Source: Bacteroidota bacterium (GTDB lineage: Bacteria > Bacteroidota > Bacteroidia > Bacteroidales > GCA-2748055). From it: 64,000 bases of DNA. The position numbers and the translations under genes were made by a program. The notes under the pieces were generated by a model that was not told the DNA's origin, made no database searches, and worked only from the letters and a program-made list of their open reading frames with translations. Positions 39,294 through 64,000 of the stretch are shown in pieces. Each line of letters begins with the position of its first letter. Positions within the stretch are counted from its first letter, which is position 1. The stretch lies in contig JBDLIQ010000007.1 of assembly GCA_039714775.1 (NCBI GenBank), positions 613 to 64,612 on the forward strand, written 5' to 3'.

Positions 39294-39324
39294 TTTGATA
39301 ATGAGAATATTCTCATTATATTTG
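39294..39324 (+). promoter_or_regulatory. Promoter (-33 TTTG, -7 TATATTTG) with a perfect 22-bp palindrome ATAATGAGAATATTCTCATTAT
   Basis: Palindrome at 39298-39319 lies between TTTG 39294-39297 and TATATTTG 39317-39324; its core recurs at 61557. Confidence 0.8.
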
Positions 39325-39365
39325 CGCTCTCGATACCGTAATACTGTATCTCTTAATAACCATAT

Positions 39366-40982
39366 ATGCAATATATAAAGAAGTCAAAAAGAGAGTTCCT
39401 GAAGTTACTGTTACTTTTCATTGCAGTGGTACTTCCCTGGATCATCGGGTTCCTGCTGGTAAGAAAAACCGATGAGCAGGTCAGGGAGAGATCCATTCCC
39501 CTTGTAAACTTCAGCAGAGATACCACCCTGAAGGCCGATCACAGCCAGTTTCCCGTTCTTCAGCAAGAGTTTAATGAGCCACAGGAGGTGACCGAAGCTT
39601 GTCTCTCCTGTCACAACAAAACCGCACAGGATGTGATGCGTTCTTCACACTGGACATGGACCAAGGATTACGTGATGGACAGTGGCGATACCATGCAACT
39701 GGGCAAGCAAAACATCATCAACAACTTCTGCATCGGGGTCTCTTCCAATGAATCGCGCTGTACCAGCTGTCACATAGGATACGGGTGGGAGGATGACCGG
39801 TTTGATTTCAATGAAAGCAGGAATATCGATTGTATCATTTGTCATGACCGGACCGGCACCTATAAAAAGTTCCCCACGGGAGCAGGATACCCGGTGACTG
39901 AAGAGAAGAAGTTTGGGGGTCAAACTTTCCTGCCTCCCGATTATTCTAAGATCGCTCAACAGGTAGGAAGTCCAGGCAGGGAGAATTGCGGAGCCTGTCA
40001 CTTTGTGGGAGGGGGAGGAAACAACGTGAAGCACGGGGATATCGCCAACGACCTTGTTGAGATCACCCGAAACGTTGATGTGCATATGGCCGTGGATGGT
40101 GCCAACATGACCTGCACCGAGTGTCACCGGACCGAGCACCACAACATCACCGGGAACCTCTACTCTATTGCATCTGTTAACAACAACAGGGTGACCTGTG
40201 ACCAGTGCCACACAAGCAAACCCCATCAAAACAGCACCCTGAACAAACATGTAAGCAGGGTGGCGTGCCAGACCTGCCATATTCCTGAGTTTGCCAAACG
40301 AACTGCTACAAAGATGTACTGGGACTGGTCCACCGCAGGGAGGCTGGATGAGACCGGGAAACCGCTGGAGGAGCATGACAGCCTGGGTAATGTAACCTAC
40401 CTGGGAAAGAAAGGGTCATTTGTTTGGGAAAACAGTGTGGAGCCTGAGTACTACTGGTTTAATGGACAGGCCAGGCACCACCTGCTGGGAGATCAGGTGG
40501 ATCCGGACAGTCCGGTCCAGTTAAACACCCTGGTGGGGGATTATCAGGACAAGCACTCCCGGATCGTGCCGGTAAAGGTGCACCGCGGAAGGCAGATCTA
40601 TGACCCGGTAAACAAAACCCTGGTATTGCCCCACCTGTACGGCAAGGACAGTACCGCCTACTGGAAGGGATTTGACTGGGACCGGTCAGCAGAAGCGGGC
40701 ATGAAAAGTGCCGGTATGCCATACAGCGGAGAGCATGGTTTCATTGCCACAGAGATGTACTGGCCCATCAACCATATGGTGGCACCGGCTGAGGAATCCC
40801 TGCATTGTTCGGACTGTCACTCCCGTGAGGGACGTTTGAGCAACCTGGCCGGTTTCTATCTTTCAGGAAGGGATCATCATCCACTTATGGACCTGGCCGG
40901 TTTTGCCATGATCATCGCTGCATTTATCGGGGTGATCATTCATTCGATGATCAGGATTAATTCGAACAGGAGGTCATCATAA
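39366..40982 (+). CDS. otr: Octaheme tetrathionate reductase (OTR) family c-type cytochrome
   Basis: Eight CxxCH motifs (CLSCH, CTSCH, CIICH, CGACH, CTECH, CDQCH, CQTCH, CSDCH); ADHSQF, INNFC, GGGGNNVKHGD, WPINHMVAP; N- and C-terminal TM anchors. Confidence 0.9.
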   Translation: MQYIKKSKREFLKLLLLFIAVVLPWIIGFLLVRKTDEQVRERSIPLVNFSRDTTLKADHSQFPVLQQEFNEPQEVTEACLSCHNKTAQDVMRSSHWTWTKDYVMDSGDTMQLGKQNIINNFCIGVSSNESRCTSCHIGYGWEDDRFDFNESRNIDCIICHDRTGTYKKFPTGAGYPVTEEKKFGGQTFLPPDYSKIAQQVGSPGRENCGACHFVGGGGNNVKHGDIANDLVEITRNVDVHMAVDGANMTCTECHRTEHHNITGNLYSIASVNNNRVTCDQCHTSKPHQNSTLNKHVSRVACQTCHIPEFAKRTATKMYWDWSTAGRLDETGKPLEEHDSLGNVTYLGKKGSFVWENSVEPEYYWFNGQARHHLLGDQVDPDSPVQLNTLVGDYQDKHSRIVPVKVHRGRQIYDPVNKTLVLPHLYGKDSTAYWKGFDWDRSAEAGMKSAGMPYSGEHGFIATEMYWPINHMVAPAEESLHCSDCHSREGRLSNLAGFYLSGRDHHPLMDLAGFAMIIAAFIGVIIHSMIRINSNRRSS

Positions 40983-40994
40983 CAAGGAAGGAAA

Positions 40995-42320
40995 ATGAAG
41001 AGAAGAACATATATATACAGGGGGTTTGAACGTTTCTGGCACTGGAGCCAGGCACTGCTCATCTTCTTCCTGGGGTTGACAGGTCTGGAGATCCACGGAA
41101 CCTATACAATCTTTGGTTTTGAGAATGTGGTTAACTGGCACAACTCGGCTGCCTGGGCTCTGCTGGTATTGATCGTTTTTACGATATTCTGGCATTTTGT
41201 GACCGGAGAATGGAAACAGTATATTCCCACCACGAAGTTTCTGAAAGCACAGTTTGAATATTACGTATCGGGTATTTTCAAAGGTGCTCCACACCCCACC
41301 CATAAAACGGTCTATAACAAATTCAATCCGCTTCAAAGGTTCATTTACCTGGGATTGAAGCTGCTGGTTATCCCTGTGATGGTGGCAACCGGGTTTATCT
41401 ACATGTTCTATCTCTATCCCAACAATCCGGTTCAGCTGACGGGACTCACCACGGTTGCTACCGTGCACACCCTGGGGGCCTTTATCCTTCTGGCTTTTGT
41501 GATTGCCCATGTCTACCTAACCACCACAGGTGATAAACCGTTGACGAGCATTAAAGCGATGGTTACCGGGTGGGAGGTACTGGATATAGATGAAAAAGAG
41601 GAGCGGAACAGGCGCCTGGTAGATGCTGTAAACGACAGTGCTGCGGGGTACTACAGAATCGGCAGAGAGGGGGAGATCATGGATGTAAATGAAGCCTGGT
41701 TGCGCCTTTACAAATGCAAGGATTCCAAAAAGATCATCGGACAGCACTTTTCGGTAACGCGGGATGAAAGGCACCGGACCGCGTTGGAAGAGCTGGTTCA
41801 AAAGGTGCTCCGGGGAGAACTGATCACCGGGGTCCCGGTCACTAGAAGATGCATGGATGGCTCCACGGGAAACCACCTGCTCTCAATGAACCCTGTTTAT
41901 GAAGAGGAGCAGATTACCGGGATCGAAGGATTTGTGATTGATATTGATGAATCGGAACCGCCAACCACACACCTGAACTATATTGTGAAAAACAGCAGTG
42001 CCGGGTATTACCGGATCGATTCGGATGGTTTCATTGCGGATGTAAATGATGCCTGGCTGAAGTTGTACAAATATGATGATCGCGGGGAGGTTGTTGGAAA
42101 ACACTACTCCATTACCAGGAACCAGACCGAAACCCGCAAGCTGGATGATACTTTTCATCAGGTGATGCAGGGCGAATTGGTGCCCGGCAAAAGGGTAATT
42201 CGCCTGTGCAGGGACGGGTCGGAAGGCAAGCACCTGCTATCTGCCAATCCGGTCTATGTGGGAAACAGGATTACCGGTATGGAGGGTTTTATTCTGGATA
42301 TTACCGGACTGGATGAATAG
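40995..42320 (+). CDS. PhsC/HyaC-type cytochrome b fused to two tandem PAS domains
   Basis: FERFWHW, TGLEIH, KFNPLQR, HTLGAF..AHVYL heme-b motifs in the first ~200 aa; two ~105-aa repeats with DVN.AW..LY and PAC-like DGS..NPVY..EGF.LDI. Confidence 0.85.
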   Translation: MKRRTYIYRGFERFWHWSQALLIFFLGLTGLEIHGTYTIFGFENVVNWHNSAAWALLVLIVFTIFWHFVTGEWKQYIPTTKFLKAQFEYYVSGIFKGAPHPTHKTVYNKFNPLQRFIYLGLKLLVIPVMVATGFIYMFYLYPNNPVQLTGLTTVATVHTLGAFILLAFVIAHVYLTTTGDKPLTSIKAMVTGWEVLDIDEKEERNRRLVDAVNDSAAGYYRIGREGEIMDVNEAWLRLYKCKDSKKIIGQHFSVTRDERHRTALEELVQKVLRGELITGVPVTRRCMDGSTGNHLLSMNPVYEEEQITGIEGFVIDIDESEPPTTHLNYIVKNSSAGYYRIDSDGFIADVNDAWLKLYKYDDRGEVVGKHYSITRNQTETRKLDDTFHQVMQGELVPGKRVIRLCRDGSEGKHLLSANPVYVGNRITGMEGFILDITGLDE

Positions 42321-42322: not shown

Positions 42323-42625
42323 TCAGCCGGTTGAGTCATCCATGCGTGATTCGATCTCTTTGATATGATCGACCAGGAAAGAGGAGTCGCTTCCCGATAC
42401 CGCCCTGATCCACGATTTTAGCCGGAGGTTCTGTTCATATACCTTCTGGCAGCTTTTAGCTTCCTCTTTGTCAGTAATTGTTTCGTTCTGATCATATACG
42501 GATTTTAGCTTATCCAGCAGACGGTCCTTCTCCCGGCACCACTCGGAGTTGCGGTCATCACAACCGCACCGGGCATCTTCAATCCACTTGAACAGACCCT
42601 CGGGAATATATACCCTGTGACTCAT
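42323..42625 (-). CDS. Hypothetical 100-aa protein with four Cys
   Basis: ORF 3 nt downstream of the preceding gene; RCGCDD..WC...SC. Confidence 0.55.
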   Translation of the reverse strand: MSHRVYIPEGLFKWIEDARCGCDDRNSEWCREKDRLLDKLKSVYDQNETITDKEEAKSCQKVYEQNLRLKSWIRAVSGSDSSFLVDHIKEIESRMDDSTG

Positions 42626-42628: not shown

Positions 42629-43339
42629 TTAGAATCTATTATGTATCTCCTCTTTCAGATCATTAAACCTGCTCTGATCGCAGTGCTTGGAGTAGATCCC
42701 AATAAAATCGGTTACCTCCTCTTTTACAAACAGATAGCTTAAAAAGGAGTCAAACAGGTTGAAATCACAGCTCAGCTTAATTTGATCCATGACTGCCTTG
42801 AACTGATCGAAATCTATCCGGTGCGGTGCAGAGAAAAAGTACCTGTTCCTGTTGTTGGCATCCCGGAAAACCCCCTCCTCCACCTTATCGTATTCAATAT
42901 ATTTCTTGTACACCACATGGGCGTTGTCAGCCGGCACTTTTTTATCATTCAGAAATTTGATTCCGGCAGATTCAAATTCTGAGATAAGCAGTGGCAGATC
43001 CTTGCGGTTGTTCACATTGACCCGGATGCACTGGTAGGTGTGTTTGTTAAAGCTGATCTGTCCCGGAAACACTTTGATTGCCAGGCTCTGTTTCTGTCTC
43101 AGGTTGGCTGTTAATCTCAGTACCAGGTCCTGAAAACAGATCACCTGGTTTTTCACAAGCAGGTAAAGGTGCCTGTCTGTCAGATGTTTTTGATTGGGGG
43201 GGAAGTTGTTTTTGGCATAGTAATCGGGCGAAGCGGATGATTCGAGAACCAGTCGGTCGAGTGAACCACTCACTGGTGAACGTGATACATCGGCATCAAA
43301 TTCAAAGCAGGTAAAACCTTCAATTTCATTTTCTTTCAT
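42629..43339 (-). CDS. Hypothetical protein, paralog of 55087..55809
   Basis: 236 aa; shares PxYY, (I/F)RV, (D/W)xxF, NxFD and DF(I/L)xIY blocks with the first gene of the operon. Confidence 0.7.
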   Translation of the reverse strand: MKENEIEGFTCFEFDADVSRSPVSGSLDRLVLESSASPDYYAKNNFPPNQKHLTDRHLYLLVKNQVICFQDLVLRLTANLRQKQSLAIKVFPGQISFNKHTYQCIRVNVNNRKDLPLLISEFESAGIKFLNDKKVPADNAHVVYKKYIEYDKVEEGVFRDANNRNRYFFSAPHRIDFDQFKAVMDQIKLSCDFNLFDSFLSYLFVKEEVTDFIGIYSKHCDQSRFNDLKEEIHNRF

Positions 43340-43403: not shown

Positions 43404-44387
43404 CTAATACCCGGCGTCTGAAAAGTATTTCATGAACTGGGTTCGTTCGTAGAGTACAGGCTGTTTGATGTTGTGCTGGCTGGCGTGTCCCCGGAAGTCG
43501 GCAATGGCATCATACTCGTGCCGTTTCATCCACTCTTTCAGGGTGTTGAGCATCTCTTCGATCACCTTTGGGCCCTCTTTATAAATGGCGGAAACCGTCT
43601 GTACCACCTGCGCTCCCACCAGCAGGTTCTTGATGACAGTCTCTCCGTCATAGACCCCCCTGGAGGCAGCCATGTCCATGCGGATCTTTTCGTAGAGGAT
43701 CCCGATCCAGCGAATGGTCATCACATTCAGCTCTTTGCAGCTATAGATATCCCCGGGGACTATCTTTTCGCGTTCGATGTCCACATCGGGACTGTAGAAC
43801 CTGTTGAACAGGACCACGGCCGATGCTTTGGTCTGTGACAGTTTATGGACAAAGTTGGCCAGCCCCGAGAAGTAGTAGCTGATCTTCAGTGCAAAGGGGA
43901 TGTTGATGGCATCGCTGATCTGCTCGATGATGTCAAAGTAGACCTGCTCCTTCTTCTCGCCGGTCTGGTCGATTTCGGCCGGCAGCAAGAAGAGGTTGAT
44001 CTCCAGTGCATCGGCTCCCGCCTCCTCGATCATCTTGGCATAGTTGGTCCACCCCTCGGCAGAGACGCAGTTAACACTGGCAATAACCGGTATGCTGAGT
44101 GCCTCCTTGTTCTCCTTGATAAGCTTTACGTACTGCGTCAGGTTGTGCTTTTTGGAGTAGTACATGGCATAGTACTCCTGGTCGGAAAATGAACCGTACA
44201 TGTTGTTGAGCCGCTGCTCGTCTACATCATGCAGGATCTGCTCCTCAAAAAGGGATTTAAGCACGATGGCTCCTGCACCCGCTTTTTCGTAAGCGATGGA
44301 GTTTTCAATGTTCTCTGTCAGTCCCGAGCTTCCCACAATGATGGGGCTCTTTAACTGCAATCCCATGTAGCTGGTTGAAAGGTCCAT
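43404..44387 (-). CDS. Dihydroorotate dehydrogenase-like FMN protein lacking the catalytic Cys
   Basis: LSTSYMGLQLKSPIIVGSS, GAIVLKSLFEEQI, LFNRFYSPD, ERTQFMK; ALEINLF in place of ELNxSCP. Confidence 0.88.
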   Translation of the reverse strand: MDLSTSYMGLQLKSPIIVGSSGLTENIENSIAYEKAGAGAIVLKSLFEEQILHDVDEQRLNNMYGSFSDQEYYAMYYSKKHNLTQYVKLIKENKEALSIPVIASVNCVSAEGWTNYAKMIEEAGADALEINLFLLPAEIDQTGEKKEQVYFDIIEQISDAINIPFALKISYYFSGLANFVHKLSQTKASAVVLFNRFYSPDVDIEREKIVPGDIYSCKELNVMTIRWIGILYEKIRMDMAASRGVYDGETVIKNLLVGAQVVQTVSAIYKEGPKVIEEMLNTLKEWMKRHEYDAIADFRGHASQHNIKQPVLYERTQFMKYFSDAGY

Positions 44388-44400
44388 AATAGTTAGGTAG

Positions 44401-46215
44401 TTAGGTAGTTGTTTTTTTTGAATCTTCAAAAAGGAATTCATCAATCCCCCTGGCTGCCTTGTGTCCGTTGGCGATGCCGTGGATCACATCGGGCCCCTGG
44501 ATGATATCACCTCCCAGGAAGAGCCAGGGCACACCGCTCTGGAAATCCTCGTTCACCTTGATCCGTCCCCGCTTGTCGATCTCCAGCTCATGTTTGAGAT
44601 CTTCGGAGAGGTAGGAGAGGTCCATCCCCTGTCCGATCGATTCAACCACCATGCTCCCCTCAAAGAACTTCAGGTTATCCATGTTGCACTGGGGATTGAA
44701 CTTTCCTTCTTCATCAAAGAGGGAGTGGCACTGGGCCACATGCAACCCCTTGATCTTATCGTTTTCGATCTCGATGCGCTGGGGTGCCCATCCGGGATTA
44801 ACCACTGCATCCTCTTCCCTTGCCTCAACCACCTCTTCGCGGTCGGCAGGCATCTTATCTTCGGTCTCAAGGCTGGTGGCAATGATCCCCGCCTTTCCAT
44901 ACTTCTGCTTCTGCAGCCGGGCCAGTGAACGGGTGATGTCCATGGCCACGTTACCACCTCCGATCACCACGATCTTCTCGGCAAGCGGTACCTCTTTGCC
45001 CAGGGTGATGTCGCGGAGCAGGTCGATGGACTGGTGAACATCTTTGTGGTCGCTTCCTTCGATCCGGGTACTGCGTCCCAGGTGGAGACCCGTTCCGGAA
45101 AATACCGCATCATACTGCTCACCCAGCTCCTCGAGTGTAATATCACTGCCCACGTTGGTGTTGTACCTGATCTCCACGCCCAGGGACTCAATGTAGTTGA
45201 TGTCCTTGTCAATCTGGTCGTAGGGAAGACGGTATTCGGGGATCCCGAACCGCATCATCCCACCGGCTTCGGAGAGTTTTTCAAATATGGTGCATTCGTA
45301 ACCCATCAGTGCTAAATAGTGGGCCGCTGACAGTCCGCTGGGGCCTGAACCAATAATAGCGATTTTTTTCCCATTCTTCTCAATGAACTCCGAATTAAGT
45401 ATCTTCTTATACCTGTCTGAGGGGTTCTGATCGGCAATGTATCTCTTCAGCCAGCGAATGGAGAGGGCCTCGCCCCTGTGTCCCAATGTGCAGACTGTCT
45501 CGCACTTATGGGTGCAAATTCGTCCGCATATCTCGGGCAGCGGGTTGGTGTCATACAAGATGCGCAACCCCTCTTCCAGGTCATCGTTGCGGATGGCCTT
45601 GATGTATTCGGGGATGCCCATGTGTGCCGGACAGGTGGCGGTACAGATGCCGCACTCCACACAGCGGTCGGCCTCTTTCTCTGCCTGCTCTTTAGAGTAT
45701 CCCGTTACCATCTCTACGAATGAATCTCCCCGCTTTTCGGGCGAAAGGTGGTCCATGGAGACCCGCTCCAGGTTGTAGAACTCATAATTGGGTTCCGGTT
45801 TTTTCCACCCCTTCTCTTCGCTGTCCCACGGTTTTTCATCCACGCCCGGAATAAACCTGTACTGTTCGGGATCCTCCTCCACCCAGGTATAGGCGTTGGT
45901 GAGGCTGAGTGAGCCTGTGGTACAGATATCGACGCAGAGTCCGCACCAGCAGCAACGGCCATAGTCTACCAGGGGCCTCAGTCCGCTGTCCCCCTCTTTT
46001 GTCTCCACACCCTCTACCGGGACCAGGTCGATGGCCTCATTTTCACAGATGGTTTCGCAGGTGCCACAACCAATGCAAGTCTCAATGTCGTTTTTGTGAA
46101 AACCCCTGTACCTGTCAGCCCCCGGCCTTTCGCCGATGGGATCTTTCAGGGCTACCGGTTTTTCAAAGGCCTTTCTCCAGGCTGTAAAGGGGGAGAATAT
46201 ATCTTTCAGGCTCAT
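44401..46215 (-). CDS. MbsN/NuoI-like 2x[4Fe-4S] domain fused to a GltD-like FAD/Fe-S oxidoreductase
   Basis: YRGFH, CIGCGTCETIC, CCWCGLCVDIC; then RCVECGICTATCP, ICGRICTHKCETVC, GSGPSGL, GGMMRFGIPEYRLP, GGGNVAMD. Confidence 0.9.
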   Translation of the reverse strand: MSLKDIFSPFTAWRKAFEKPVALKDPIGERPGADRYRGFHKNDIETCIGCGTCETICENEAIDLVPVEGVETKEGDSGLRPLVDYGRCCWCGLCVDICTTGSLSLTNAYTWVEEDPEQYRFIPGVDEKPWDSEEKGWKKPEPNYEFYNLERVSMDHLSPEKRGDSFVEMVTGYSKEQAEKEADRCVECGICTATCPAHMGIPEYIKAIRNDDLEEGLRILYDTNPLPEICGRICTHKCETVCTLGHRGEALSIRWLKRYIADQNPSDRYKKILNSEFIEKNGKKIAIIGSGPSGLSAAHYLALMGYECTIFEKLSEAGGMMRFGIPEYRLPYDQIDKDINYIESLGVEIRYNTNVGSDITLEELGEQYDAVFSGTGLHLGRSTRIEGSDHKDVHQSIDLLRDITLGKEVPLAEKIVVIGGGNVAMDITRSLARLQKQKYGKAGIIATSLETEDKMPADREEVVEAREEDAVVNPGWAPQRIEIENDKIKGLHVAQCHSLFDEEGKFNPQCNMDNLKFFEGSMVVESIGQGMDLSYLSEDLKHELEIDKRGRIKVNEDFQSGVPWLFLGGDIIQGPDVIHGIANGHKAARGIDEFLFEDSKKTTT

Positions 46216-46235
46216 GATCGCTCTGTTTAATGTTG

Positions 46236-47426
46236 TTATCGTTCAATTTCCGGTGGACAGGTGGCCAGGGAGACCATGATGGAGGAGACATCTGAGATGT
46301 TCGCTCCCTCCAACAGTTTCTCCAGCAGTGCCATTGCATGGGTATAGCTGGGTCCGCGCAGGTTGATCCTTCTTGGATAGATGGAGCCGTCGGCCACCAT
46401 GTAGAAGAGGTACTCTCCCCGGCTCGATTCGCTCCGTACCAGGGTCTCTCCTTTGGGTACTTTCCAGTGCAATACGTTGGGTGTTTCGGCCCTGATGTCT
46501 CCCTTTTCGGGCATCTTTGCCATGATCTGCCTGAGCAGGTCGATGGTGGTATCCACATCCCTTCGGCGAACATGGAAGCGGGCAAAAACATCCGATTCCT
46601 GTGCGGTGTTAACCCCGAAGTCGAGCTGGTCATAGTAGAGGTAGGGGTAGTCCTTGCGAACATCCCTTTCATAGCCTGCAGCACGTGCAACCGGTCCGGT
46701 GGCACCATAGCGATCGATCCAGTCGGCCGGAACAATCCCGATCCCTTTGGTCCGCTTCTTAAATACTGCGTTTGCATAGACCACCCTGTCCACATCCTTC
46801 ATAAAGGATTCGATCTTCACAAGGTTCTCCTCCAGCCGCGTTTTGAAGCCATCGGGCAGCAGTCCCCTCACCCCGCCAGGCAGGATGTACATGTGGTAAA
46901 CGCGTCCTCCGGTGAGCTCCTCGAACCGGTCCAGAATCAGCTCCCTGTAGTAGAGACCCCACGTTCCCGGCAGTCCGAGCCCGATGGTACCTCCCTGGCC
47001 GGGTACGCTTCTGAGCAGAACCTGCAGTCTTGCCAGTTCCAGTGCCATCATCCTGAGCCATTGGGCCATCTCAGGAACTTCGATCCCCGACAAAATTTCG
47101 GTACCCCGTGCCAGATTGTATTCGTTGGAGTCCGGTTCGGGGACACACATGCGGATGGAGGTGGGGAAGCACTGCATGTACCTGCGGCGCTCGAACAGTT
47201 TTTCAAATCCACGGTGCAGGTAGCCCACATGGGTTTTGGACTCCATGATCTCATCTCCGCTGATGGTCAGCTCGAGCGCCATGTTCCCGGTTATCCCGGG
47301 ATGGTTGGGACCCTGCCACACCTTGATGTACTTCTGTGATTCGAGGTCCACATCCGGTTTCCCATCCTCGTTGAGCCCGGGAAACAGGTTTCTTTCATTC
47401 TTCCAGTTAAATATCTTATTGCTCAT
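46236..47426 (-). CDS. mbxL: MbsL/MbxL (NuoD-like large subunit without NiFe CxxC motifs)
   Basis: GPNHPG, GYLHRGFEKL, RMCVPEPD, C-terminal TCPPEIER. Confidence 0.85.
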   Translation of the reverse strand: MSNKIFNWKNERNLFPGLNEDGKPDVDLESQKYIKVWQGPNHPGITGNMALELTISGDEIMESKTHVGYLHRGFEKLFERRRYMQCFPTSIRMCVPEPDSNEYNLARGTEILSGIEVPEMAQWLRMMALELARLQVLLRSVPGQGGTIGLGLPGTWGLYYRELILDRFEELTGGRVYHMYILPGGVRGLLPDGFKTRLEENLVKIESFMKDVDRVVYANAVFKKRTKGIGIVPADWIDRYGATGPVARAAGYERDVRKDYPYLYYDQLDFGVNTAQESDVFARFHVRRRDVDTTIDLLRQIMAKMPEKGDIRAETPNVLHWKVPKGETLVRSESSRGEYLFYMVADGSIYPRRINLRGPSYTHAMALLEKLLEGANISDVSSIMVSLATCPPEIER

Positions 47427-55907: not shown

Positions 55908-55920
55908 TTTCCAGTTTTGC

Positions 55921-56671: not shown

Positions 56672-56674
56672 ATT

Positions 56675-56974: not shown

Positions 56975-57239
56975 GAAGATACCTGTTTTTAAAAATAGTG
57001 ATGAAGAACGTGCGTTCTGGAGAGATCATGATTCTTCTGATTATGTGGATTGGGAGTCCTCGGAAAGAATACTCTTCAGTAATCTTAAACCAACCACGAA
57101 AACCATCTCACTTCGTCTGCCTGAATACATTATAGATGAACTAAAACTGCTTGCACACAAGAAAGATGTTCCTTACCAGTCACTGATAAAGATCTTCCTG
57201 AAGGATAGAATAGACCGGGAATTGCGTCAGGCTCTCTAA
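56961..57239 (+). CDS. brnA: BrnA/CopG-type antitoxin
   Basis: IPVFKNSDEERAFW..HDS, KTISLRLP, VPYQSLIK; overlaps the toxin gene. Confidence 0.88.
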   Translation: MKKVKKIPVFKNSDEERAFWRDHDSSDYVDWESSERILFSNLKPTTKTISLRLPEYIIDELKLLAHKKDVPYQSLIKIFLKDRIDRELRQAL

Positions 57240-57344: not shown

Positions 57345-57779
57345 TTAATTTGCCGGTTTCAGAACAATCTCGGAGGTAATCTCCAGTGCCTTTTTATAGA
57401 CCTCGCTTACACCACAGTAACGGTCTTCGGAGAGTGAAACAGCCTTTTTGATCTTCTCCATGGGGAGGTCATCGCCTTCAATCTCATAGGTCACATGCAT
57501 TTTATGAAAATGCCTGGGGTGTTCGGTGGTGAGTCCACCCTCTACCTTCACATTGAGGCCCTTGATGTCGACCCTCATCTTCTTCAGGATGGAGACCACA
57601 TCCATACCGGTGCAGCCACCCAGGGCGGCCAGCATGAACGGTTTGGGCCTGGGACCCAGGTCTTCACCTCCCACATCGGTATCTGCATCGATGATGATCT
57701 TATGTCCGTTGATATCTGTTTCAAAGGACATGTTCTCACGCCATGTGGTGGTTACCACCTCTTTCTCTTTCACTGCCAT
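57345..57779 (-). CDS. OsmC/YhfA family protein
   Basis: GPRPK..LAALGGCTGMDVVSILKKMR, SEDRYCGVS. Confidence 0.9.
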   Translation of the reverse strand: MAVKEKEVVTTTWRENMSFETDINGHKIIIDADTDVGGEDLGPRPKPFMLAALGGCTGMDVVSILKKMRVDIKGLNVKVEGGLTTEHPRHFHKMHVTYEIEGDDLPMEKIKKAVSLSEDRYCGVSEVYKKALEITSEIVLKPAN

Positions 57780-57869
57780 TTTTATCAATTTTAATGCTAT
57801 CCTGATCTATTAACTTCGTTGAGCCCCATGTGGTTCATTTAAATAGTTGAGGCTATGTAAATTTACATT

Positions 57870-58376
57870 TTAAAACAATGTGAACTTCAGGTTCATAAAA
57901 CGCATCATATCCTCCACTTCGAGCGATACTTTTTCAATGATCGTCTCAACCTCGCCACCGAATATTTTTCCCATGACGGCTCCGTTCATTGTGGATACAT
58001 AGACCTGTCCGTCAGATTTTTCATAGACGGCAAATGTTTTGGGCATCATGTTCCCGATCTGTTTGCGGTCATCGGCGCTCAGCATATCTGAAGAATAGCT
58101 TCCCGAACAATATTTAATGATCTTAAAATTCCCGATGGGATATCCTCCATTCTCGGAGACCTCCCTGTTCTGGTCGATGATCCCTGTGACGTGCCAGCCA
58201 TCTTTGGCATTGATCCGGTCAGACATGACCGTGACGGTCTTTTCGAAATCGTAAGGGCTCTTAATCTCCTTGATCATCATCTCTTTGGAGGAGATACTGA
58301 CAACGATACCAGAGAAGATGATTCCGGCAATAAATCCGAAAATGAGGTAAATAACAGTGCTGATTTTAGTTTTCAT
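57870..58376 (-). CDS. DUF302 family protein with an N-terminal anchor
   Basis: SPYDFEKTV, IIKYC, MMPKTFAVYEKSDGQVYVS. Confidence 0.75.
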   Translation of the reverse strand: MKTKISTVIYLIFGFIAGIIFSGIVVSISSKEMMIKEIKSPYDFEKTVTVMSDRINAKDGWHVTGIIDQNREVSENGGYPIGNFKIIKYCSGSYSSDMLSADDRKQIGNMMPKTFAVYEKSDGQVYVSTMNGAVMGKIFGGEVETIIEKVSLEVEDMMRFMNLKFTLF

Positions 58377-58386
58377 AACGGTATAA

Positions 58387-59337
58387 TTAATCTTCATTTA
58401 CACAAATTTCACCCTGTCTGATCTTTCCCAGGGTTTTCCATGTTACAAAGCCGATGGTGAGAATGGCCAGGGTAAACATGACAAATGATAAGTATTTATA
58501 TATAGGCTGTGCTGTGATCTGGTAAGCAACAACCGAGGCCAGGGTAATGGCGTCGAGTGGAAAGGTAAATGCCCACCAGGAGATAAAGAACTTGAGGTTC
58601 TTAAAGCTTTTATAGAGGAAAAAGAGCAGCACCACGAAAAAATAGGCCAGGAAGAGCATGAAATATGCAAAGGTGTCCAGGCTCTGTCCGATCCTGATGT
58701 ATGCAATAAATCCTATGGCCGGTGGTGCGATCAGTATGAAAAGGGTGGGGATAAACTTCTGGGGTAGCTGGTGGTGGAAGATGGCCCGGTTCAGAAAAAT
58801 GATAAACAGAACCACCCAAAAGAAGAATCCCACGGCGAAATAGAAAAAGGAGAATGCCTTTGGCATAAATTCCACTCCCACTACAGGGATCAGGATGTTT
58901 CCTACCACCGGGATGAACCATGCCGGGTTCATAAACTGGATCTCAAAGTTATGTCTGATCCAGAAGCTGATGGTGTAGAACATGAGCACCGTGTGCAACA
59001 AAATCCCCACCCACCAGAAAATCATGGAGAGAAAGGGCCAGTATCCCAGGAAGGCTATGGATTGCAGCAGGAACGAAATGGATATGGCCGAAAAGAAGTT
59101 GATCCGGATCCTGTGGTTGAAGTCCGCCTTCACCTCATCAAAGTGTTTGATGGCCTTGCGGCCGTACAGGAAGCTGATAACCAGGAAAAGCCCCAGTGTA
59201 AAAAACAGCAATCCGTCAAACAGAATTTTGGGCATCCATTGCATGTGATAGAACTTGCCAAACACAATGGCCAGTCCTGTTAACCCCATGATGATTGCAT
59301 AGGCTGTGATTGGAAAAAATTGTATGCGCTCTTTCAT
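58387..59337 (-). CDS. SLAC1/TehA (TDT family) anion channel
   Basis: IMGLTGL, NPAWFIPVVGN, PTLFILIAPP, SWWAFTFP. Confidence 0.9.
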   Translation of the reverse strand: MKERIQFFPITAYAIIMGLTGLAIVFGKFYHMQWMPKILFDGLLFFTLGLFLVISFLYGRKAIKHFDEVKADFNHRIRINFFSAISISFLLQSIAFLGYWPFLSMIFWWVGILLHTVLMFYTISFWIRHNFEIQFMNPAWFIPVVGNILIPVVGVEFMPKAFSFFYFAVGFFFWVVLFIIFLNRAIFHHQLPQKFIPTLFILIAPPAIGFIAYIRIGQSLDTFAYFMLFLAYFFVVLLFFLYKSFKNLKFFISWWAFTFPLDAITLASVVAYQITAQPIYKYLSFVMFTLAILTIGFVTWKTLGKIRQGEICVNED

Positions 59338-59348
59338 CCGTTTAAAAT

Positions 59349-60275
59349 TTAAGATCTGATGTATTCGGCAGCCCCCAGGGAGGCGATGGTCCCGTCGGCT
59401 ACTGCAGTGGTTACCTGGCGGTATTTTTTTGCAATGCAGTCTCCTGCAGCAAATACCCCCGGAACACTGGTTTTCATCTCACCATCAGCGACGATCTCTT
59501 TCCGCTCGTTGAGGGCAATGATCCCCTCCAGATCGGTCGTATTGGGCATATAACCCACGAAAATGAATGCACCATCGATTCTCTTTGATGTGACATCTCC
59601 CGTAGGAAGGTGTTCGATGGTTACCTCCTGCAAACCGCCTTCACCTGTAAATGAACGAAGCTCCGATTCCATGATGAACTCAATCTTCGGATTCTGTTTT
59701 GCCTGATCAATGGCATGCTGAAATGCCTGGAAATGGTCGAACTGGTGTACGATGGTCACCTTCTCAGCATGGTTGGTGAGTGCGACTGCCTCTTCCAGGG
59801 CCGAGTTTCCGCCTCCAACAACAATGATCTCCTTTCCGGTGAAGAATTCACCATCACAGGTGGCGCAGTAGGAGATCCCGCTTCCCTTAAAGGTCTCTTC
59901 ACCCGGAATATTAAGCGGGCGGGGTCTTCCGCCCGGGGTGAGGATCACAGTGCTTGATTCGAACTCCCTGCCATCTTCCAGTACAATGCGCTTTACCTCC
60001 CCCTCCAGCTCATAGGATTTCACCTTGATGTTTGATTTGATCTTGCAGCCAAAGGTTTTAGCCTGTGTTTTCATGGTGTTGGCAAGCATGTACCCGTGGG
60101 TCTTCTCTACACCAGGGTAATTTGCAATCTCTTCGGTGAGCACCATCTGGCCTCCCACTGCTCCCTCGTTGAGGATCAGTGTTGAAAGGCGGGCACGGGA
60201 GGTGTATATTCCCGCTGTAAGGCCGGCAGCTCCTGCACCCACGATGATGACATCGTATCTTTCGTTCATGTTCAT
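59349..60275 (-). CDS. Thioredoxin reductase-family flavoprotein, HQF type
   Basis: GAGAAGL, SYCATCDG, GGGNSA, VHQFDHFQA in place of HRRxxxR, FAAGD..RQVTTA. Confidence 0.9.
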   Translation of the reverse strand: MNMNERYDVIIVGAGAAGLTAGIYTSRARLSTLILNEGAVGGQMVLTEEIANYPGVEKTHGYMLANTMKTQAKTFGCKIKSNIKVKSYELEGEVKRIVLEDGREFESSTVILTPGGRPRPLNIPGEETFKGSGISYCATCDGEFFTGKEIIVVGGGNSALEEAVALTNHAEKVTIVHQFDHFQAFQHAIDQAKQNPKIEFIMESELRSFTGEGGLQEVTIEHLPTGDVTSKRIDGAFIFVGYMPNTTDLEGIIALNERKEIVADGEMKTSVPGVFAAGDCIAKKYRQVTTAVADGTIASLGAAEYIRS

Positions 60276-60281
60276 GCCAGA

Positions 60282-60644
60282 CTATTTTGCAACCTCGGCA
60301 ACAAATTGTTCATCCAGGATGGAGGTGATCTGGGCCATGTTTTGAATGCTGCTGGTGGCTTTAGCAACCTGGCCATTCTTATAATACATGGTGAAGGGCA
60401 GTCCCATAAATCCCCTGCATTCGGGTGCATTGCGGATAATGTGTGCTTCTGGTGTGTCAAAAGCCATTACGGCAAATTTTATATTGGTGCGCTCCTCTTC
60501 AAGCTCTTCCATTACGTCATATACCGGGATACACATGGGACCCATCCGGCCACAGCAGACCATTACGTTTTCGTTTTCTGCAATCAGCTTCTCAAGTTCA
60601 GCTGCTGTTTCAATCTCCTGTAAATTCGTGTGTAACATCTTCAT
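60282..60644 (-). CDS. Atypical thioredoxin-fold protein
   Basis: CCGRMGPMCIPV active-site region, GLPFTMYYKNG cis-Pro loop; directly upstream of the reductase. Confidence 0.8.
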   Translation of the reverse strand: MKMLHTNLQEIETAAELEKLIAENENVMVCCGRMGPMCIPVYDVMEELEEERTNIKFAVMAFDTPEAHIIRNAPECRGFMGLPFTMYYKNGQVAKATSSIQNMAQITSILDEQFVAEVAK

Positions 60645-60819
60645 TTTTTTACTTTTTTATGGTTATAGAATTCGTTGTTTTCAAATGAGCTGCAAAAGTC
60701 TGCTATTTTCCTCAGGCCGCCATCAAAACAGGGGTGGAACTCCATAGGTTTTTTTCTATCATTTTACAGGTTTTGAATTATCTTTGGGTGATTTATTACG
60801 TTTTTTGACCATCCATTTA

Positions 60820-61515
60820 ATGACGAATCACAATAGCAATCAAGGAGATAACGGAAAAAAGAATGAGCCGGATTGTTTTCAGTTAATCTCCCGGGAAGAT
60901 TTGGAGTTACTGAGCGAAAACAGAACCCAGCTTACCTATCTGAAGGGGGATACTATTTTTATACAGGGTGCATTTGCCCCCCATGTGCTGTTTATCCAGT
61001 CGGGATTGGTCAAGGTCTATCTCAGGACCGGTCCCACCAAGCAGCAGAATCTCTGGCTGGCCAGAAGTGGTGATTTTCTGGCCTTTGCTTCCATGTTTGG
61101 AGAGAAAGTCTATCCCTATTCGGCCGTGGCCCTGAAAGATGCGGAGCTACTGATGATCGAGATGGAGAGTCTCAGGACACTGCTTAAATCAAATCCGGAG
61201 TTTTCTCTCAGGATCACCTCCAAGAACCATGGGACACAGGCACATCTGCTCGATATCATCACCAATCTCTCTTACAAACAGATGCGCGGTAAACTCGCAT
61301 CGTGCCTGACCTACCTCAATTCCGAACCCTTTCAGCAGGATCAGGCATTCAGGTATCTCTCGCGTCAGGATATTGCCGATTTTGCCTCCATATCGGTCGA
61401 AAGCGTGATCAGGTTTCTGAAAGAGTTTGAGAAGGAGGGGATGATTGCGCTGGAAGGCAAGAACATTACCCTGACCGATCCTCAAAGACTTTCAGAGATC
61501 AGCAAGACCGGATAG
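60820..61515 (+). CDS. Crp/Fnr family regulator
   Basis: KGDTIFIQG, SGLVKV, YSAVAL, HTH SRQDIADFASISVESVIRFL. Confidence 0.92.
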   Translation: MTNHNSNQGDNGKKNEPDCFQLISREDLELLSENRTQLTYLKGDTIFIQGAFAPHVLFIQSGLVKVYLRTGPTKQQNLWLARSGDFLAFASMFGEKVYPYSAVALKDAELLMIEMESLRTLLKSNPEFSLRITSKNHGTQAHLLDIITNLSYKQMRGKLASCLTYLNSEPFQQDQAFRYLSRQDIADFASISVESVIRFLKEFEKEGMIALEGKNITLTDPQRLSEISKTG

Positions 61516-61550: not shown

Positions 61551-61580
61551 TTTGATATGAGAATATTCTCATTATCTTTG
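61551..61580 (+). promoter_or_regulatory. Promoter with palindrome ATGAGAATATTCTCAT (second copy)
   Basis: TTTG 61551-61554, palindrome 61557-61572, TATCTTTG 61573-61580. Confidence 0.8.
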
Positions 61581-61610
61581 TCCCGGTTTTAACACATCAA
61601 AAGAGAACAG

Positions 61611-61940: not shown

Positions 61941-62816
61941 ATGAAAAAAATTGCAGTAGCAAGTGGAAAAGGGGGGACAGGCAAAACTACGGTGGCAGTT
62001 AACCTGTTTCACCAGATAGCAAATGATCACACCGCGAAGGTGGAGCTGGTGGATTGTGATGTGGAAGAGCCAAACGATCATCTCTTCTTTGAAGGGCTGG
62101 AGGTTCGTAAGGAGAAACAGGCCACCCAGTTGATCCCCACCATCGATAACGACAAATGCACCTATTGCAGAAAATGCGCTGAGTGGTGTGAATTTAATGC
62201 CATTGTTGTGATCCCCCCTGCAAAATTTGCAGAGGTGAACCCAAGTCTCTGTCACTCGTGTGGTGCCTGTATTGTTGCCTGTGAACATGGAGCCATCTCG
62301 GAAAACCCGGAGGAGATCGGTGTCATGCGAACCTGTAACACAGGGAACAATGGCATCCTGACCGATGGTTCGCTTAAGATCGGTTCTGCCATGCAGACCA
62401 TGTTGATCAAGCAGGTGAAGGAGCAGGTTTCGGACGATAACGAGGTGGTCATTTTCGATGCACCTCCCGGCACCAGTTGTCCTGTCGTTGAAACAGTTTC
62501 CGATTCGGATTATGTGATCCTGGTAACCGAGCCCACACCTTTTGGATTGCACGATCTCAAACTGACAGTTGAACTGCTCAAAGAGATCAACAAACCGTTT
62601 GGTGTGGTTGTCAACAAAGCCGGACTGGGTGACCGGAAGGTCTATGATTATCTCGAAGAGGAGCAGATCGAAATGTTGGGGGAGATCCCTTTTCAGCTCG
62701 ATTATGCCTCGCTCTATGCAAAGGGGGAGCTTCTGAAACATATTCCGGAAGATGTTGAACCTGTCTACAGGGCGATCGCAGAGAAAGTGTTAAACAGTAA
62801 CAATGCTCATTCATGA
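61941..62816 (+). CDS. MinD/ParA-family P-loop ATPase with an inserted 2x[4Fe-4S] domain
   Basis: ASGKGGTGKTT, DCDVEEPN, CTYCRKCAEWC, CHSCGACIVAC, DAPPGTSCP, TEPTPFGLHDL. Confidence 0.9.
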   Translation: MKKIAVASGKGGTGKTTVAVNLFHQIANDHTAKVELVDCDVEEPNDHLFFEGLEVRKEKQATQLIPTIDNDKCTYCRKCAEWCEFNAIVVIPPAKFAEVNPSLCHSCGACIVACEHGAISENPEEIGVMRTCNTGNNGILTDGSLKIGSAMQTMLIKQVKEQVSDDNEVVIFDAPPGTSCPVVETVSDSDYVILVTEPTPFGLHDLKLTVELLKEINKPFGVVVNKAGLGDRKVYDYLEEEQIEMLGEIPFQLDYASLYAKGELLKHIPEDVEPVYRAIAEKVLNSNNAHS

Positions 62817-63679
62817 AGGAGATAACCATACTTAGCGGCAAGGGGGGGACTGGTAAGACAACCATCACAGCGGCCATCGCATCCATTGCATCCGATGCTG
62901 TTTTTTGCGACAACGATGTGGATGCTGCAGACCTTCATCTGATCCTCGAACCCTCAATCCGGGAGGAGAACCATTACCTGGGATCCTGGGTCGCATCCAT
63001 CGATGAATCTCAATGCAACGGGTGTAACATTTGTCAGGATCAGTGCCGTTTTGATGCCATTCATACCAACGAGAACGGTTTCCCGGAGATCAATCCCCTC
63101 CAGTGTGAAGGGTGCCGCCTCTGTGAAAGACTCTGTCCGGTTGATGCCATCTCCTCGGAGCGCAGTGACCGCAATTTCTGGTATGTTTCAGACACCCGGT
63201 TCGGCACCCTGGTCCATGCACATATGGGACCGGGTGAAGATAATTCGGGGAAGCTTGTGTCGGAAGTGCGAAAAAAGGCCAAAGAGCTGGCTGTGGAGCA
63301 GAACGCAAAATATGTGATTAATGACGGTCCTCCCGGGATCGGTTGTTCCGCCATCTCTTCCGTGACAGGAACCGACCAGGTTCTGATGGTGATCGAGCCC
63401 ACTGTGTCGGGACTGCATGATGCAAGCCGGCTGGTTGAGTTGATCGATAGCTTCTCTATCCCCATGGCTGCCCTGATCAATAAATATGACATCAATCTGG
63501 AGATGACCACCGAAATCGAAAACTTCCTTGAGGAGAAGAAGATACCGCTGGTTGGAAGGATTCCCTTTGATCAGCACATGGTGGAGTCCATGGTGGAAGG
63601 CAAATCAATCGTGGAGTTTGACAGGGAGTCGGAGGCCTCGCAGATCATCATCAATGCATGGAAAGCAGTTAAAAGTTGA
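62813..63679 (+). CDS. MinD/ParA-family P-loop ATPase with 2x[4Fe-4S] (paralog)
   Basis: SGKGGTGKTT, DVDAADL, CNGCNICQDQC, CEGCRLCERLC, NSGKLV, DGPPGIGC. Confidence 0.9.
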   Translation: MKEITILSGKGGTGKTTITAAIASIASDAVFCDNDVDAADLHLILEPSIREENHYLGSWVASIDESQCNGCNICQDQCRFDAIHTNENGFPEINPLQCEGCRLCERLCPVDAISSERSDRNFWYVSDTRFGTLVHAHMGPGEDNSGKLVSEVRKKAKELAVEQNAKYVINDGPPGIGCSAISSVTGTDQVLMVIEPTVSGLHDASRLVELIDSFSIPMAALINKYDINLEMTTEIENFLEEKKIPLVGRIPFDQHMVESMVEGKSIVEFDRESEASQIIINAWKAVKS

Positions 63680-63710
63680 AAGTGGACATGTTAATGAACA
63701 ACCATAAGAT

Positions 63711-64000
63711 ATGAGTAAGAAAGAGAGAATATTTCCCGAATCGGGCGTTGAGTTATCCCCATTCATGTCGAAGCACTATGACAGGGTCCTTTCCCTGGCT
63801 ACCATGGGCCGGTACCCCCGGATCATCAAACAGGCAATCAAAGATATGGAGATACAGCCCGATGACAGGATCCTGGACCTGGGATGCGGAACGGGGTATA
63901 ATGCCAGCCTTATGGCCCACTACCTGGGGGCGAAGGGACGCATCCAGGGGATCGACATCTCAGATGAGATGGCCGGGCAGTTTCAGGAGCGCTTCCATGA
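63711..64000 (+). CDS. Class I SAM-dependent methyltransferase, UbiE-like (runs off the window)
   Basis: Manual translation MSKKERIFPESG...HYDRVLSLATMG...ILDLGCGTG..GIDIS. Confidence 0.8.
   Translation, partial: MSKKERIFPESGVELSPFMSKHYDRVLSLATMGRYPRIIKQAIKDMEIQPDDRILDLGCGTGYNASLMAHYLGAKGRIQGIDISDEMAGQFQERFH

Follow-up and report, generated by a model that had tools for sequence, protein, structure and literature searches.

The membrane-bound sulfane reductase (MBS) is familiar from hyperthermophilic archaea and is seen as one stage in how complex I evolved. Here we describe an MBS-like operon and its neighbours in a mesophilic Bacteroidota host, on a window of 64,000 nucleotides (nt) from Bacteroidota bacterium GCA_039714775.1 (contig JBDLIQ010000007.1, positions 613 to 64,612); the block studied covers positions 39294-64000 of this window and also carries a cytochrome c of the octaheme tetrathionate reductase (OTR) family with a cytochrome b partner. 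Several other parts of the block have described counterparts. PhsABC and PsrABC occur with a Sud-type rhodanese in Salmonella and Wolinella, the orange-protein (Orp) clusters of Desulfovibrio combine DUF134, NifX-like proteins and MinD-type Fe-S ATPases, and in NfnAB and the dihydropyrimidine dehydrogenase PreT/PreA a GltD-like Fe-S flavoprotein is joined with a second flavoprotein. The hallmarks described for MBS are the MbsJ ligands C28, C93 and C123, a non-ligand C25, MbsL C85 and C385, and the lack of Nqo4 H38 and Y87 (Yu et al. 2020, PMC7684303). A gltD-type subunit is known in the mbx-like operons of Thermotoga and proteobacteria (Degli Esposti 2015, PMC4758237), and an Otr-cytochrome b561 cluster has been described in an Ignavibacteriae metagenome-assembled genome (MAG) (PMC7509429).

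The MBS-like operon of the window shares with Pyrococcus furiosus MBS (6U8Y, PMC7684303) the same set of Mrp-type plus NuoH/B/C/D/I-type subunits, with two MbsH/H' modules. In the direction of transcription it reads hyp244, MnhE, MrpF, MnhG, MbhD, MnhB/MbhE, MbsG, MbsH-MbsH', MbsM, MbsJ, MbsK, MbsL, an MbsN-GltD fusion and a DHOD-like protein. Among solved structures, the MbsL-like subunit matched 6U8Y_L best (274 bits, versus 189 for Thermus Nqo4 and 119 for MbhL), as did the MbsJ-like subunit 6U8Y_J (214.8 bits, versus 137 for NdhK and 89 for MbhJ), with 163 residues aligned without a gap. In the latter alignment, numbered as in PMC7684303, the equivalents of C28, C93 and C123 are present and the C25 position is occupied by Gly; the loop has the same length as in MBS, and the tandem CC motif of complex I is absent. 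The MbsL-like subunit retains the equivalents of C85 and C385, the vestigial NiFe cysteines, as Cys94 and in a C-terminal CPPEIER motif, while the positions of Nqo4 H38 and Y87, which bind quinone, hold Thr46 and Val95. The predicted catalytic pocket of the complex is thus of the MBS kind, because the three ligand cysteines and the two NiFe cysteines are kept and the quinone His and Tyr are replaced. The differences from P. furiosus MBS lie elsewhere: MbsH and MbsH' are fused, Cys25 is changed to Gly, the MbsN domain is fused to a GltD-like flavoprotein that is followed by the DHOD-like protein, an FNR-type regulator stands in place of SurR, two extra uncharacterised proteins flank the operon, and the host is bacterial and mesophilic.

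The fused input subunit, of 604 aa, was recognised by NF010590 (PRK13984) with 882.6 bits over residues 2-598, just under the curated cut-off of 946. NuoI models match its residues 7-146, the MbsN-like di-cluster domain, and the GltD-like part adds two further [4Fe-4S] motifs together with FAD and NAD(P)H Rossmann motifs. Archaeal MBS has a stand-alone MbsN that takes electrons from ferredoxin; in the window the MbsN-like domain is instead fused to the flavoprotein. The DHOD-like protein scored 402 bits with NF005741 (cut-off 303); it has only two Cys and lacks a ferredoxin domain. Both features recur in 80 related MBS-like loci from 77 species-representative genomes, all labelled MAGs, which were scanned with 10-kb flanks and belong mostly to the Bacteroidales, with a few from Chlorobiota, Spirochaetia, Delongbacteria, Cloacimonadota and Aminicenantes: the fusion gene adjoins MbsL in 75 of the 80 loci, and the DHOD-like gene directly follows the fusion gene in 54. 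The electron donor is probably not free ferredoxin, because the MbsN domain is fused to a GltD-like flavoprotein and then followed by the DHOD-like protein. NfnAB and PreT/PreA likewise pair a GltD-like domain, which has two [4Fe-4S] motifs plus FAD and NAD(P)H Rossmann motifs, with a PyrD-like FMN barrel; in the window the two would be joined to a membrane complex, and the DHOD-like member is devoid of a ferredoxin domain. Compared by description with the bacterial mbx-like operons (PMC4758237; T. maritima MBX, PMC9431562), the window's operon likewise has a NuoI-type subunit replaced by, or fused to, a GltD-like flavoprotein within an mrp-nuo operon, while a DHOD-like partner, an FNR-type regulator, the hyp236/244 proteins and a linkage to OTR or Phs go unmentioned in those parts of the two sources that describe the operons.

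Some further observations concern these two genes. Just downstream of the DHOD-like gene, 28 of the 80 loci by clustering, and 31 by tblastn, encode a CBS-pair protein of about 156 aa (for example, L053:11970-12440), which is not present in the window. A second tier of full-length NuoI-GltD homologs, 43-45% identical, was seen in 16 of 301 genomes, in 13 of which it is the sole fusion, and three genomes (G145, G189 and G209) carry both tiers. In one locus (L054, PKTB01000024.1, match 10001-11785), the fusion gene contains three in-frame TAA codons and the next, DHOD-like gene contains one, which could reflect a pseudogene, an assembly error or recoding. A natural fusion of the flavoprotein with the DHOD-like protein, suspected in L025, was rejected, as the translation shows a stop codon between the two.

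The co-occurrence of the families was evaluated in an order-wide, evenly drawn sample of 301 genomes; all the relatives used in this work are draft genomes or MAGs, and absence calls depend on their completeness. A first pass over 41 relatives had found the full-length fusion in five and OTR in 17. In the larger sample, the NuoI-GltD fusion was detected in 44 genomes, OTR in 64 and a PhsA-like protein in 90. OTR was present in 20 of the 44 fusion carriers and in 44 of the 257 other genomes (odds ratio 4.0, Fisher p 9e-5), and the PhsA-like protein in 23/44 and 67/257, respectively (odds ratio 3.1, Fisher p 0.001), p values that are overstated because kin are not independent. Of the 77 genomes that contributed the 80 loci, 34 carry OTR (21/50 plus 13/27), three of them within 25 kb on the same contig.

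Physical linkage was observed as well. Eight species-level genomes have the MBS-like operon no more than 25 kb from OTR, a Phs module, or both. The operon shares a contig, at this distance, with OTR and its cytochrome b/PAS partner (CytB/PAS) in the window's genome (G000, 5 kb apart) and in G152, G322, G336 and G389, and a Phs-FeS-NrfD-YeeE-YeeE-rhodanese module follows the operon within 10 kb in 4/80 loci; L078, L085 and L087 have the Phs module within this distance, and G389 also has one downstream. In G152, of another family, the MBS operon, the DHOD-like gene, a lipoprotein rhodanese, OTR and CytB/PAS all lie on one strand. In G322, where the set includes a Crp gene and takes up about 35 kb, the order is MBS operon, hyp236-like gene, CytB-OTR and PhsA-FeS-NrfD-YeeE-YeeE-rhodanese-rhodanese. 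In G336, labelled as an uncultured Draconibacterium, about 35 kb hold MobA, the Phs module, YeeE, rhodaneses, a hyp236-like gene, CytB, OTR, two Crp genes and the MBS operon. The closest to a repeat of the window is G389, in which DUF134, NifX, a ferritin-like protein, NifX, a ZIP transporter, TDT, DUF302, Fer4, CGGC, two ATPases, NifX, OTR, CytB, a peroxiredoxin and some further genes come ahead of a Crp gene, a ten-heme cytochrome, a rhodanese, TetR and the MBS operon; this is nearly the whole family list of the window, reordered.

OTR also has sulfur-related neighbours of its own. It lies less than 7 kb from PhsA in at least seven genomes (G046, G049, G189, G228, G272, G306 and G322), and in G034 and G035 the genes that come after it are YeeE/TsuA-like and a rhodanese. 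As in the PhsABC/PsrABC systems with Sud, a PhsA-like protein, an Fe-S protein and NrfD occur with secreted rhodaneses, and with YeeE/TsuA-like proteins, in G001, G322, G336, G389, L078, L085 and L087. The PhsA-like protein of this module scored 472 bits with the PhsA model, below the cut-off of 694. The families form a recurrent but shuffled neighbourhood whose hub is OTR with CytB/PAS, and the block consists of separable modules rather than one operon or one machine. By a rough estimate, two random genes on a 4-Mb genome fall within 25 kb of each other in about 1% of cases per genome; the MBS-like operon joins the OTR neighbourhood in a minority of carriers, still far above chance placement. 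An earlier conclusion of ours that the modules are not co-conserved, drawn from the 80 loci and from the split arrangement of G001, was revised after the order-wide sample and longer stretches showed this linkage.

The OTR protein itself was assigned by TIGR04315 (637 bits, cut-off 375) and by PDB 1SP3, the Shewanella oneidensis OTR (E 1.3e-135, alignment over residues 64-492). With the latter it shares eight CxxCH motifs and the Lys of a GK(K/Q)N motif aligned with Lys56 of 1SP3, a residue that presumably has a functional role. Hydrophobic, transmembrane-like helices are found at residues 14-32 and 507-525; the C-terminal one is an addition relative to the Shewanella protein and sits past the end of the 1SP3 alignment (query residue 492). 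The same-genus matches of about 447-477 aa, 43-51% identical, align only to about residue 490. The cytochrome b partner matched NF011582 (thiosulfate reductase cytochrome b) with 104.9 bits, under its cut-off, and its gene, fused to PAS domains, adjoins OTR in G001, G032, G152, G322, G336 and G389. A cytochrome b gene beside OTR is likewise seen in the Otr-cytochrome b561 cluster of the Ignavibacteriae MAG (PMC7509429); the features that set the window apart from the OTR systems as described there are the two cytoplasmic PAS domains of its cytochrome b and the promoter palindrome common to the orp-like operon.

This 16-nt palindrome, ATGAGAATATTCTCAT, stands before OTR (39301-39316) and before the NifX/ATPase operon (61557-61572). 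The sequence-only reading of the window had pointed to an identical palindrome in promoters near both ends of the block, and the two are indeed the only exact copies in the 4,058,390-base assembly, in which a control pattern gave 0; two genomic sites with two mismatches both fall inside long open reading frames (ORFs). At both sites the palindrome spans the gap between TTTG and TAnnTTTG (in the OTR promoter, TATATTTG), which we take, by their consensus, to be the -33/-7 promoter elements of Bacteroidetes. In G001, the closest relative and a member of the same genus, it precedes OTR as two tandem copies and also the DUF134-NifX-ATPase operon; it is ahead of the NifX and ATPase genes in G006, the third congener, and ahead of DUF134-NifX in G034, which belongs to another family. 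It was not found near OTR or MBS in G152, G322, G336, G389, G032, G039 and G035. From its sites before OTR and the NifX operon, OTR is therefore tied to the orp-like operon and not to the MBS-like operon. In G032 (C158, L116), about five tandem units of about 33-36 nt (TTTTTTGAAAAAATAAAACCTTTTCGGAAAAAC-like) occupy the OTR upstream region, some 250 nt before OTR at 4790.

The palindrome may be bound by Crp2, its neighbour in G000 and G001, or by the DUF134 protein, which has no ortholog at this place in G000. Crp2 lacks an N-terminal Cys motif and stands right before the second palindrome, likewise in G001. A reading of the palindrome as a Fur-type box was dropped on account of its two genomic sites only, its position before DUF134-NifX operons in relatives and its Crp/Fnr-like half-sites. 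The regulator beside the MBS-like operon, Crp1, carries an N-terminal CxxCx5C (Cys10, Cys13, Cys19) and a central Cys111, the arrangement of the [4Fe-4S] motif of Escherichia coli FNR. The divergent region between hyp244 and Crp1 holds a putative operator, the box ATTGAGATATCTCACAT (TTGAG-ATAT-CTCAC), to be compared with the FNR operator TTGAT-N4-ATCAA; it is invariant in G000, G001 and G006, three congeners only, in a region of 81% mean identity. Crp-family regulator genes adjoin 33 of the 80 MBS-like loci, and the N-terminal Cys motif is present in most of the 12 homologs inspected. Palindromes of the 5-N4-5 type occur in many of 32 regulator-operon spacers, which were scanned without a shuffled control and are not used as evidence.

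The right half of the block was examined by the same family scans. The TrxR-like protein has the CATC motif and scored 330.5 bits with TIGR01292, below the cut-off of 343.45. Because HQF stands at the position of HRR, the NADPH-binding motif of E. coli TrxR, this protein may use another donor such as ferredoxin or flavodoxin. The best models for the TDT protein were of the TehA/tellurite-resistance type, all under their cut-offs. The 120-aa thioredoxin-like protein gave no Pfam match even at E 0.1 and has no WCGPC motif; its likeness to thioredoxin comes solely from a language-model likeness of 0.99 to clusters named putative thioredoxin. With the Desulfovibrio Orp clusters the last operon shares a NifX-like PF02579 protein and two MinD/Fer4 ATPases, while it is distinguished by an operator common to OTR and by the absence of DUF134 from the locus, the sole copy found in the genome being a 32%-identical paralog elsewhere; DUF134 heads the operon in G001, G034 and G389. 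In G001, OsmC and DUF302-TDT-TrxR-Trx bracket a module of Phs-like, YeeE and rhodanese genes, all on one strand. The BrnT/BrnA pair between Crp1 and OsmC in G000 is an insertion and not part of the system; in G006, Crp1 is directly followed by OsmC.

The gene map (Table 1) was built from the ORF listing and from family scans with Pfam and NCBIfam/TIGR models. The families named by the sequence-only reading, that is, the MBS-type complex, OTR, cytochrome b, TrxR-like protein, OsmC, DUF302, TDT, two Crp/Fnr regulators and NifX with the ATPases, were all located where it had put them, and only its thioredoxin was left without a Pfam match. It had passed over the BrnT/BrnA pair, the MbsN(NuoI)-GltD fusion with its DHOD-like partner, hyp236 and hyp244, and the end of the contig 208 nt past the window, up to which the right side of the block is seen. 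Cytochrome c maturation genes, which it had found missing from the window, are represented elsewhere in the genome by three CcsBA-type fused biogenesis ORFs (955, 1030 and 1045 aa).

Table 1. Features of the block, with positions in the window, strand and basis of assignment
Feature	Position	Strand	Basis
OTR promoter: TTTG, palindrome 39301-39316, then TATATTTG	39294-39324	+	sequence read
OTR-family octaheme cytochrome c	39366-40982	+	TIGR04315, 1SP3 match
Cytochrome b561 (PhsC/Ni_hydr_CYTB-like) fused to two PAS domains	40995-42320	+	PF01292, PAS
hyp100, hypothetical 100-aa protein	42323-42625	-	no family matched; homologs in G006, G010
hyp236, uncharacterised paralog of hyp244	42629-43339	-	blastp E 4e-14
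Long MBS-like operon	43404-55803	-	Mrp plus NuoH/B/C/D/I-type families
DHOD-like FMN TIM-barrel (PRK07565 family)	43404-44384	-	NF005741
MbsN/NuoI-like domain + GltD/NfnB-like FAD/NAD(P)H flavoprotein fusion (PRK13984 family)	44401-46215	-	Fer4, Fer4_20, Pyr_redox_2
MbsL-like (NuoD-type)	46236-47426	-	6U8Y_L match
MbsK-like (NuoC-type)	47416-47946	-	PF00329; start inferred via G001 alignment
MbsJ-like (NuoB-type)	47957-48631	-	6U8Y_J match
MbsM-like (NuoH-type) membrane anchor	48636-49544	-	PF00146
Fused MbsH-MbsH', 1044 aa, two antiporter-like modules	49541-52675	-	PF00361 twice; NF006241 residues 4-460, NF006419 441-1040
Mrp-type small subunits NuoK/MbsG, MnhB/MbhE, MbhD, MnhG, MrpF, MnhE	52669-55073	-	PF00420, PF04039 with PF20501, PF13244, PF03334, PF04066, PF01899
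hyp244, first gene of MBS-like operon	55087-55803	-	no family matched
FNR-like box ATTGAGATATCTCACAT, hyp244/Crp1 divergent region	55892-55908	.	invariant in G000, G001, G006
Crp1, FNR-type regulator	55921-56619	+	Pfam families, Cys motif
BrnT/BrnA type II toxin-antitoxin pair	56660-57239	+	PF04365, PF12441
OsmC, DUF302 (signal/anchor), TDT/SLAC1 (TehA-like) anion channel, TrxR-like (CATC), 120-aa thioredoxin-like	57345-60644	-	family scans
TrxR-like protein	59349-60275	-	TIGR01292, CATC
Thioredoxin-like protein, 120 aa	60282-60644	-	language-model likeness
Crp2, Crp/Fnr-family regulator	60784-61515	+	family scan
NifX-operon promoter with second palindrome copy (61557-61572)	61551-61583	+	sequence read
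orp-like operon: NifX-like, two MinD/Fer4 ATPases, methyltransferase start (cut by contig end)	61611-64000	+	PF02579, family scans

The two uncharacterised proteins hyp236 and hyp244, paralogs of each other, flank the MBS-like operon, and members of their family lie beside MBS-like operons or OTR in 14 of the 80 loci, as well as in G322 and G336. For hyp244, no Pfam/NCBIfam family and no usable Atlas match were obtained. Its predicted structure (pLDDT 86, pTM 0.83) looks like two alpha+beta halves, and the fold of the model gave no clear PDB match (best Foldseek E 0.017, TM <0.31; best VIA Z 6.3, a generic alpha+beta arrangement). Marks of a mobile island were not evident: tRNA genes occur only at 19.5-21.3 kb, and the GC fraction, between 0.44 and 0.54, shows no clear break (integrases were not searched for). 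Among sequencing runs listed for this DNA were two DNA runs, both from one study of a marine metagenome, and no RNA run. The five tRNA genes are clustered at positions 19485-21255, and further on (24371-32579) are two very long ORFs of 1271 and 1440 aa, rpoB/rpoC-like by size and position alone.

Taken together, we favour, with about an even chance of being right, the reading that this is a loosely linked, recurrent neighbourhood equipping an anaerobic marine Bacteroidales bacterium to respire and handle sulfur compounds of intermediate oxidation state, in which the MBS-like complex reduces sulfane sulfur. From the gene identities, motifs and neighbourhoods we infer the probable substrates, direction of electron flow and ion pumping as follows. 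OTR with its cytochrome b/PAS partner would be a menaquinol-linked periplasmic reductase, for which tetrathionate to thiosulfate is the most likely reaction, in line with PhsA, YeeE and rhodanese beside OTR in relatives. The 17-gene MBS-like operon would encode a complex-I-type ion pump with a catalytic pocket of the MBS kind, most likely reducing sulfane sulfur (polysulfide or persulfide) that arrives from the membrane; electrons would enter or leave via the GltD/NfnB-like flavoprotein fused to the MbsN domain, and the DHOD-like FMN protein is a probable extra subunit. Anoxia or redox state may switch this operon through its own FNR-type [4Fe-4S] regulator. OsmC, DUF302, TDT, TrxR and the Trx-like protein may handle thiol, sulfite or polythionate by-products, and the orp-like NifX/ATPase operon would be co-regulated with OTR through the common palindrome. 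Sulfane reduction is favoured because the three-Cys pocket is conserved and because mbxA of T. maritima is up 4.36-fold after addition of elemental sulfur (S0) (PMC9431562).

The sequence-only reading had gone further and proposed a single integrated sulfur-respiration system. Its association of the families is real though loose, as seen in their co-occurrence and in the linkage within 25 kb, and the near-repeat in G389 agrees with it; the integration was not borne out, given the separable modules, a palindrome confined to OTR and the NifX operon, and an FNR-type regulator that the MBS-like operon has to itself. A number of observations also weigh against our own reading. Most carriers of one module lack the other: OTR was not found in 24 of the 44 fusion carriers, and 44 of the 64 OTR carriers are without the fusion. 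Within the 10-kb flanks, OTR was seen in none of the 80 loci, in a scan whose upstream flank ends at the operon start, so that upstream neighbours are invisible to it. In G001, contig C37 holds the Crp1-MBS unit, and C61 holds OTR, OsmC, DUF302-TDT-TrxR-Trx, Crp2 and the NifX operon; G006 has the MBS unit, Crp1, OsmC, TrxR-Trx and Crp2 together, and an orthologous OTR was not found there. MBS and OTR are 150 kb apart in G335, 318 kb in G283 and 567 kb in G337, and they lie on different long contigs in G259 and G339. The Phs-like module of G000 sits away from the block, on contig C8 (about 33.2-40.7 kb, L115), as eight genes, 86% identical to those of G001, for MobA, a 395-aa membrane protein, a PhsA-like protein, an Fe-S protein, NrfD, two YeeE/TsuA-like half genes and a secreted rhodanese. 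The rhodaneses beside the operons carry signal or lipoprotein leaders and would thus serve the periplasm, not the cytoplasmic MBS site. The promoter of the MBS-like operon does not share the palindrome, and its FNR-like Crp1 likely senses O2 or redox state, not sulfur. The Shewanella OTR also reduces nitrite and hydroxylamine in vitro. The input subunit is of the NAD(P)H type, unlike that of archaeal MBS, and we reason that transfer from NAD(P)H to polysulfide releases too little energy to drive two antiporter modules with ease. Finally, the fusion, OTR and PhsA may all simply mark anoxic sulfidic habitats.

Two rival readings of the complex keep some weight, given that its input is of the NAD(P)H type, the driving force is small, its control is of the FNR type and the neighbouring rhodaneses are secreted. 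It might be an Rnf-like ion-translocating ferredoxin:NAD(P)+ oxidoreductase, the original "Mbx" reading, with the sulfur genes brought near it by common anaerobic regulation or habitat. The fusion of the NuoI-like domain to a GltD-like NAD(P)-binding flavoprotein speaks for this, as do the FNR-type regulator and the majority of carriers in which no sulfur module is linked; moreover, the gltD-type subunit of Thermotoga and proteobacterial mbx-like operons is taken as the site of NAD(P)+ reduction (Degli Esposti 2015, PMC4758237), and Mbx is modelled in that way in a Mesotoga preprint (10.1101/322537). We judge this unlikely nonetheless, since the flavoprotein caps MbsN and leaves no evident ferredoxin docking site, coupling in this enzyme family needs the chemistry of the NuoB/NuoD pocket and the pocket retains the MBS-type three-Cys cluster, the linkage to OTR or Phs recurs in eight genomes, and S0 induces mbxA in T. 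maritima (PMC9431562). Somewhat more doubtful still is an ion-pumping NAD(P)H:menaquinone oxidoreductase, that is, an electron-input module feeding the quinol-dependent OTR-CytB and PhsABC. It would fit the co-localisation with quinol-linked reductases (the OTR cytochrome b and the NrfD-type subunit of Phs), the NAD(P)H-type input domain and the MBS chamber, which resembles the complex I quinone chamber in being wide and hydrophobic (Yu et al., PMC7684303); it has to contend with Thr and Val at the head-group positions of Nqo4 H38/Y87 and with a proximal cluster that has three Cys as in MBS and no tandem CC motif of complex I.

The other two alternatives concern the surroundings of the complex. 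The right half (OsmC, Trx/TrxR, TDT, DUF302 and NifX/ATPases), perhaps with OTR, could serve stress defence or detoxification rather than sulfur respiration, with oxidants, nitrite/hydroxylamine, tellurite/selenite or metals as targets. This would suit the OsmC and TrxR/AhpF-like matches, the sub-threshold TehA/tellurite-resistance models of TDT, the peroxiredoxin, ferritin-like protein and ZIP transporter in the same run of G389, and the in vitro activities of OTR on nitrite and hydroxylamine. We hold this to be very unlikely in view of the G001 equivalents, which stand on both sides of a Phs-like, YeeE and rhodanese module and share its strand, of OTR adjoining PhsA in at least seven genomes and YeeE plus rhodanese in G034 and G035, and of DUF302, which is found in the sox clusters of sulfur oxidisers (PMC5037610). 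That the MBS-like operon stands beside the other modules in G000 through a chance rearrangement in a variable region, devoid of functional meaning, is the least probable of all and hardly to be expected: order and content do vary among the congeners G000, G001 and G006, the toxin-antitoxin insertion is in G000 only and the MBS promoter lacks the palindrome, yet against an estimated 1% or so expected within 25 kb, MBS-OTR linkage was met in five independent families and MBS-Phs linkage in three more loci.

A bolder version of the sulfane-reducing reading deals with the energetics: bifurcation at the NfnB-like flavoprotein would solve them, which is speculation. The input module would split the NAD(P)H electrons: the low-potential one would drive ion-pumping sulfane reduction at the three-Cys cluster, and the FMN site would pass the other to an acceptor of high potential. 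Joined by OTR-CytB/PAS, PhsABC, secreted rhodaneses, YeeE/TsuA and a TDT sulfite channel, the complex would give marine and sulfidic-sediment Bacteroidales a complete respiratory network from tetrathionate through thiosulfate and polysulfide to sulfide. We regard this version as improbable on present evidence, on a par with the Rnf-like alternative; if true, it would represent MBS-based sulfur respiration outside thermophiles.

As for novelty, OTR, Psr and Phs have already been reported as common in Bacteroidota MAGs, and 30 of the 73 OTR-encoding Zodletone genomes are such MAGs (10.1101/2021.07.05.451135); because of this, the mainly fermentative phylum in which the sequence-only reading had set its proposal was an overstatement. 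A literature search, with supplementary tables outside its scope, returned no paper that describes an MBS/Mbx complex in Bacteroidota or places one beside OTR or Phs. What is new is a variant and an association of known parts. Opinions on the bacterial relatives of MBS are divided between ferredoxin:NAD(P)+ oxidoreductases and sulfur reductases, and the locus gives a testable handle on this question: a putative MBS-type pocket in a mesophilic order (44/301 genomes, by the fusion), wired to an NAD(P)H-type flavoprotein and found repeatedly beside tetrathionate-type and thiosulfate/polysulfide-type reductases. If the favoured reading holds, it would bear on energy conservation in sediment Bacteroidales and on the cryptic sulfur cycle.

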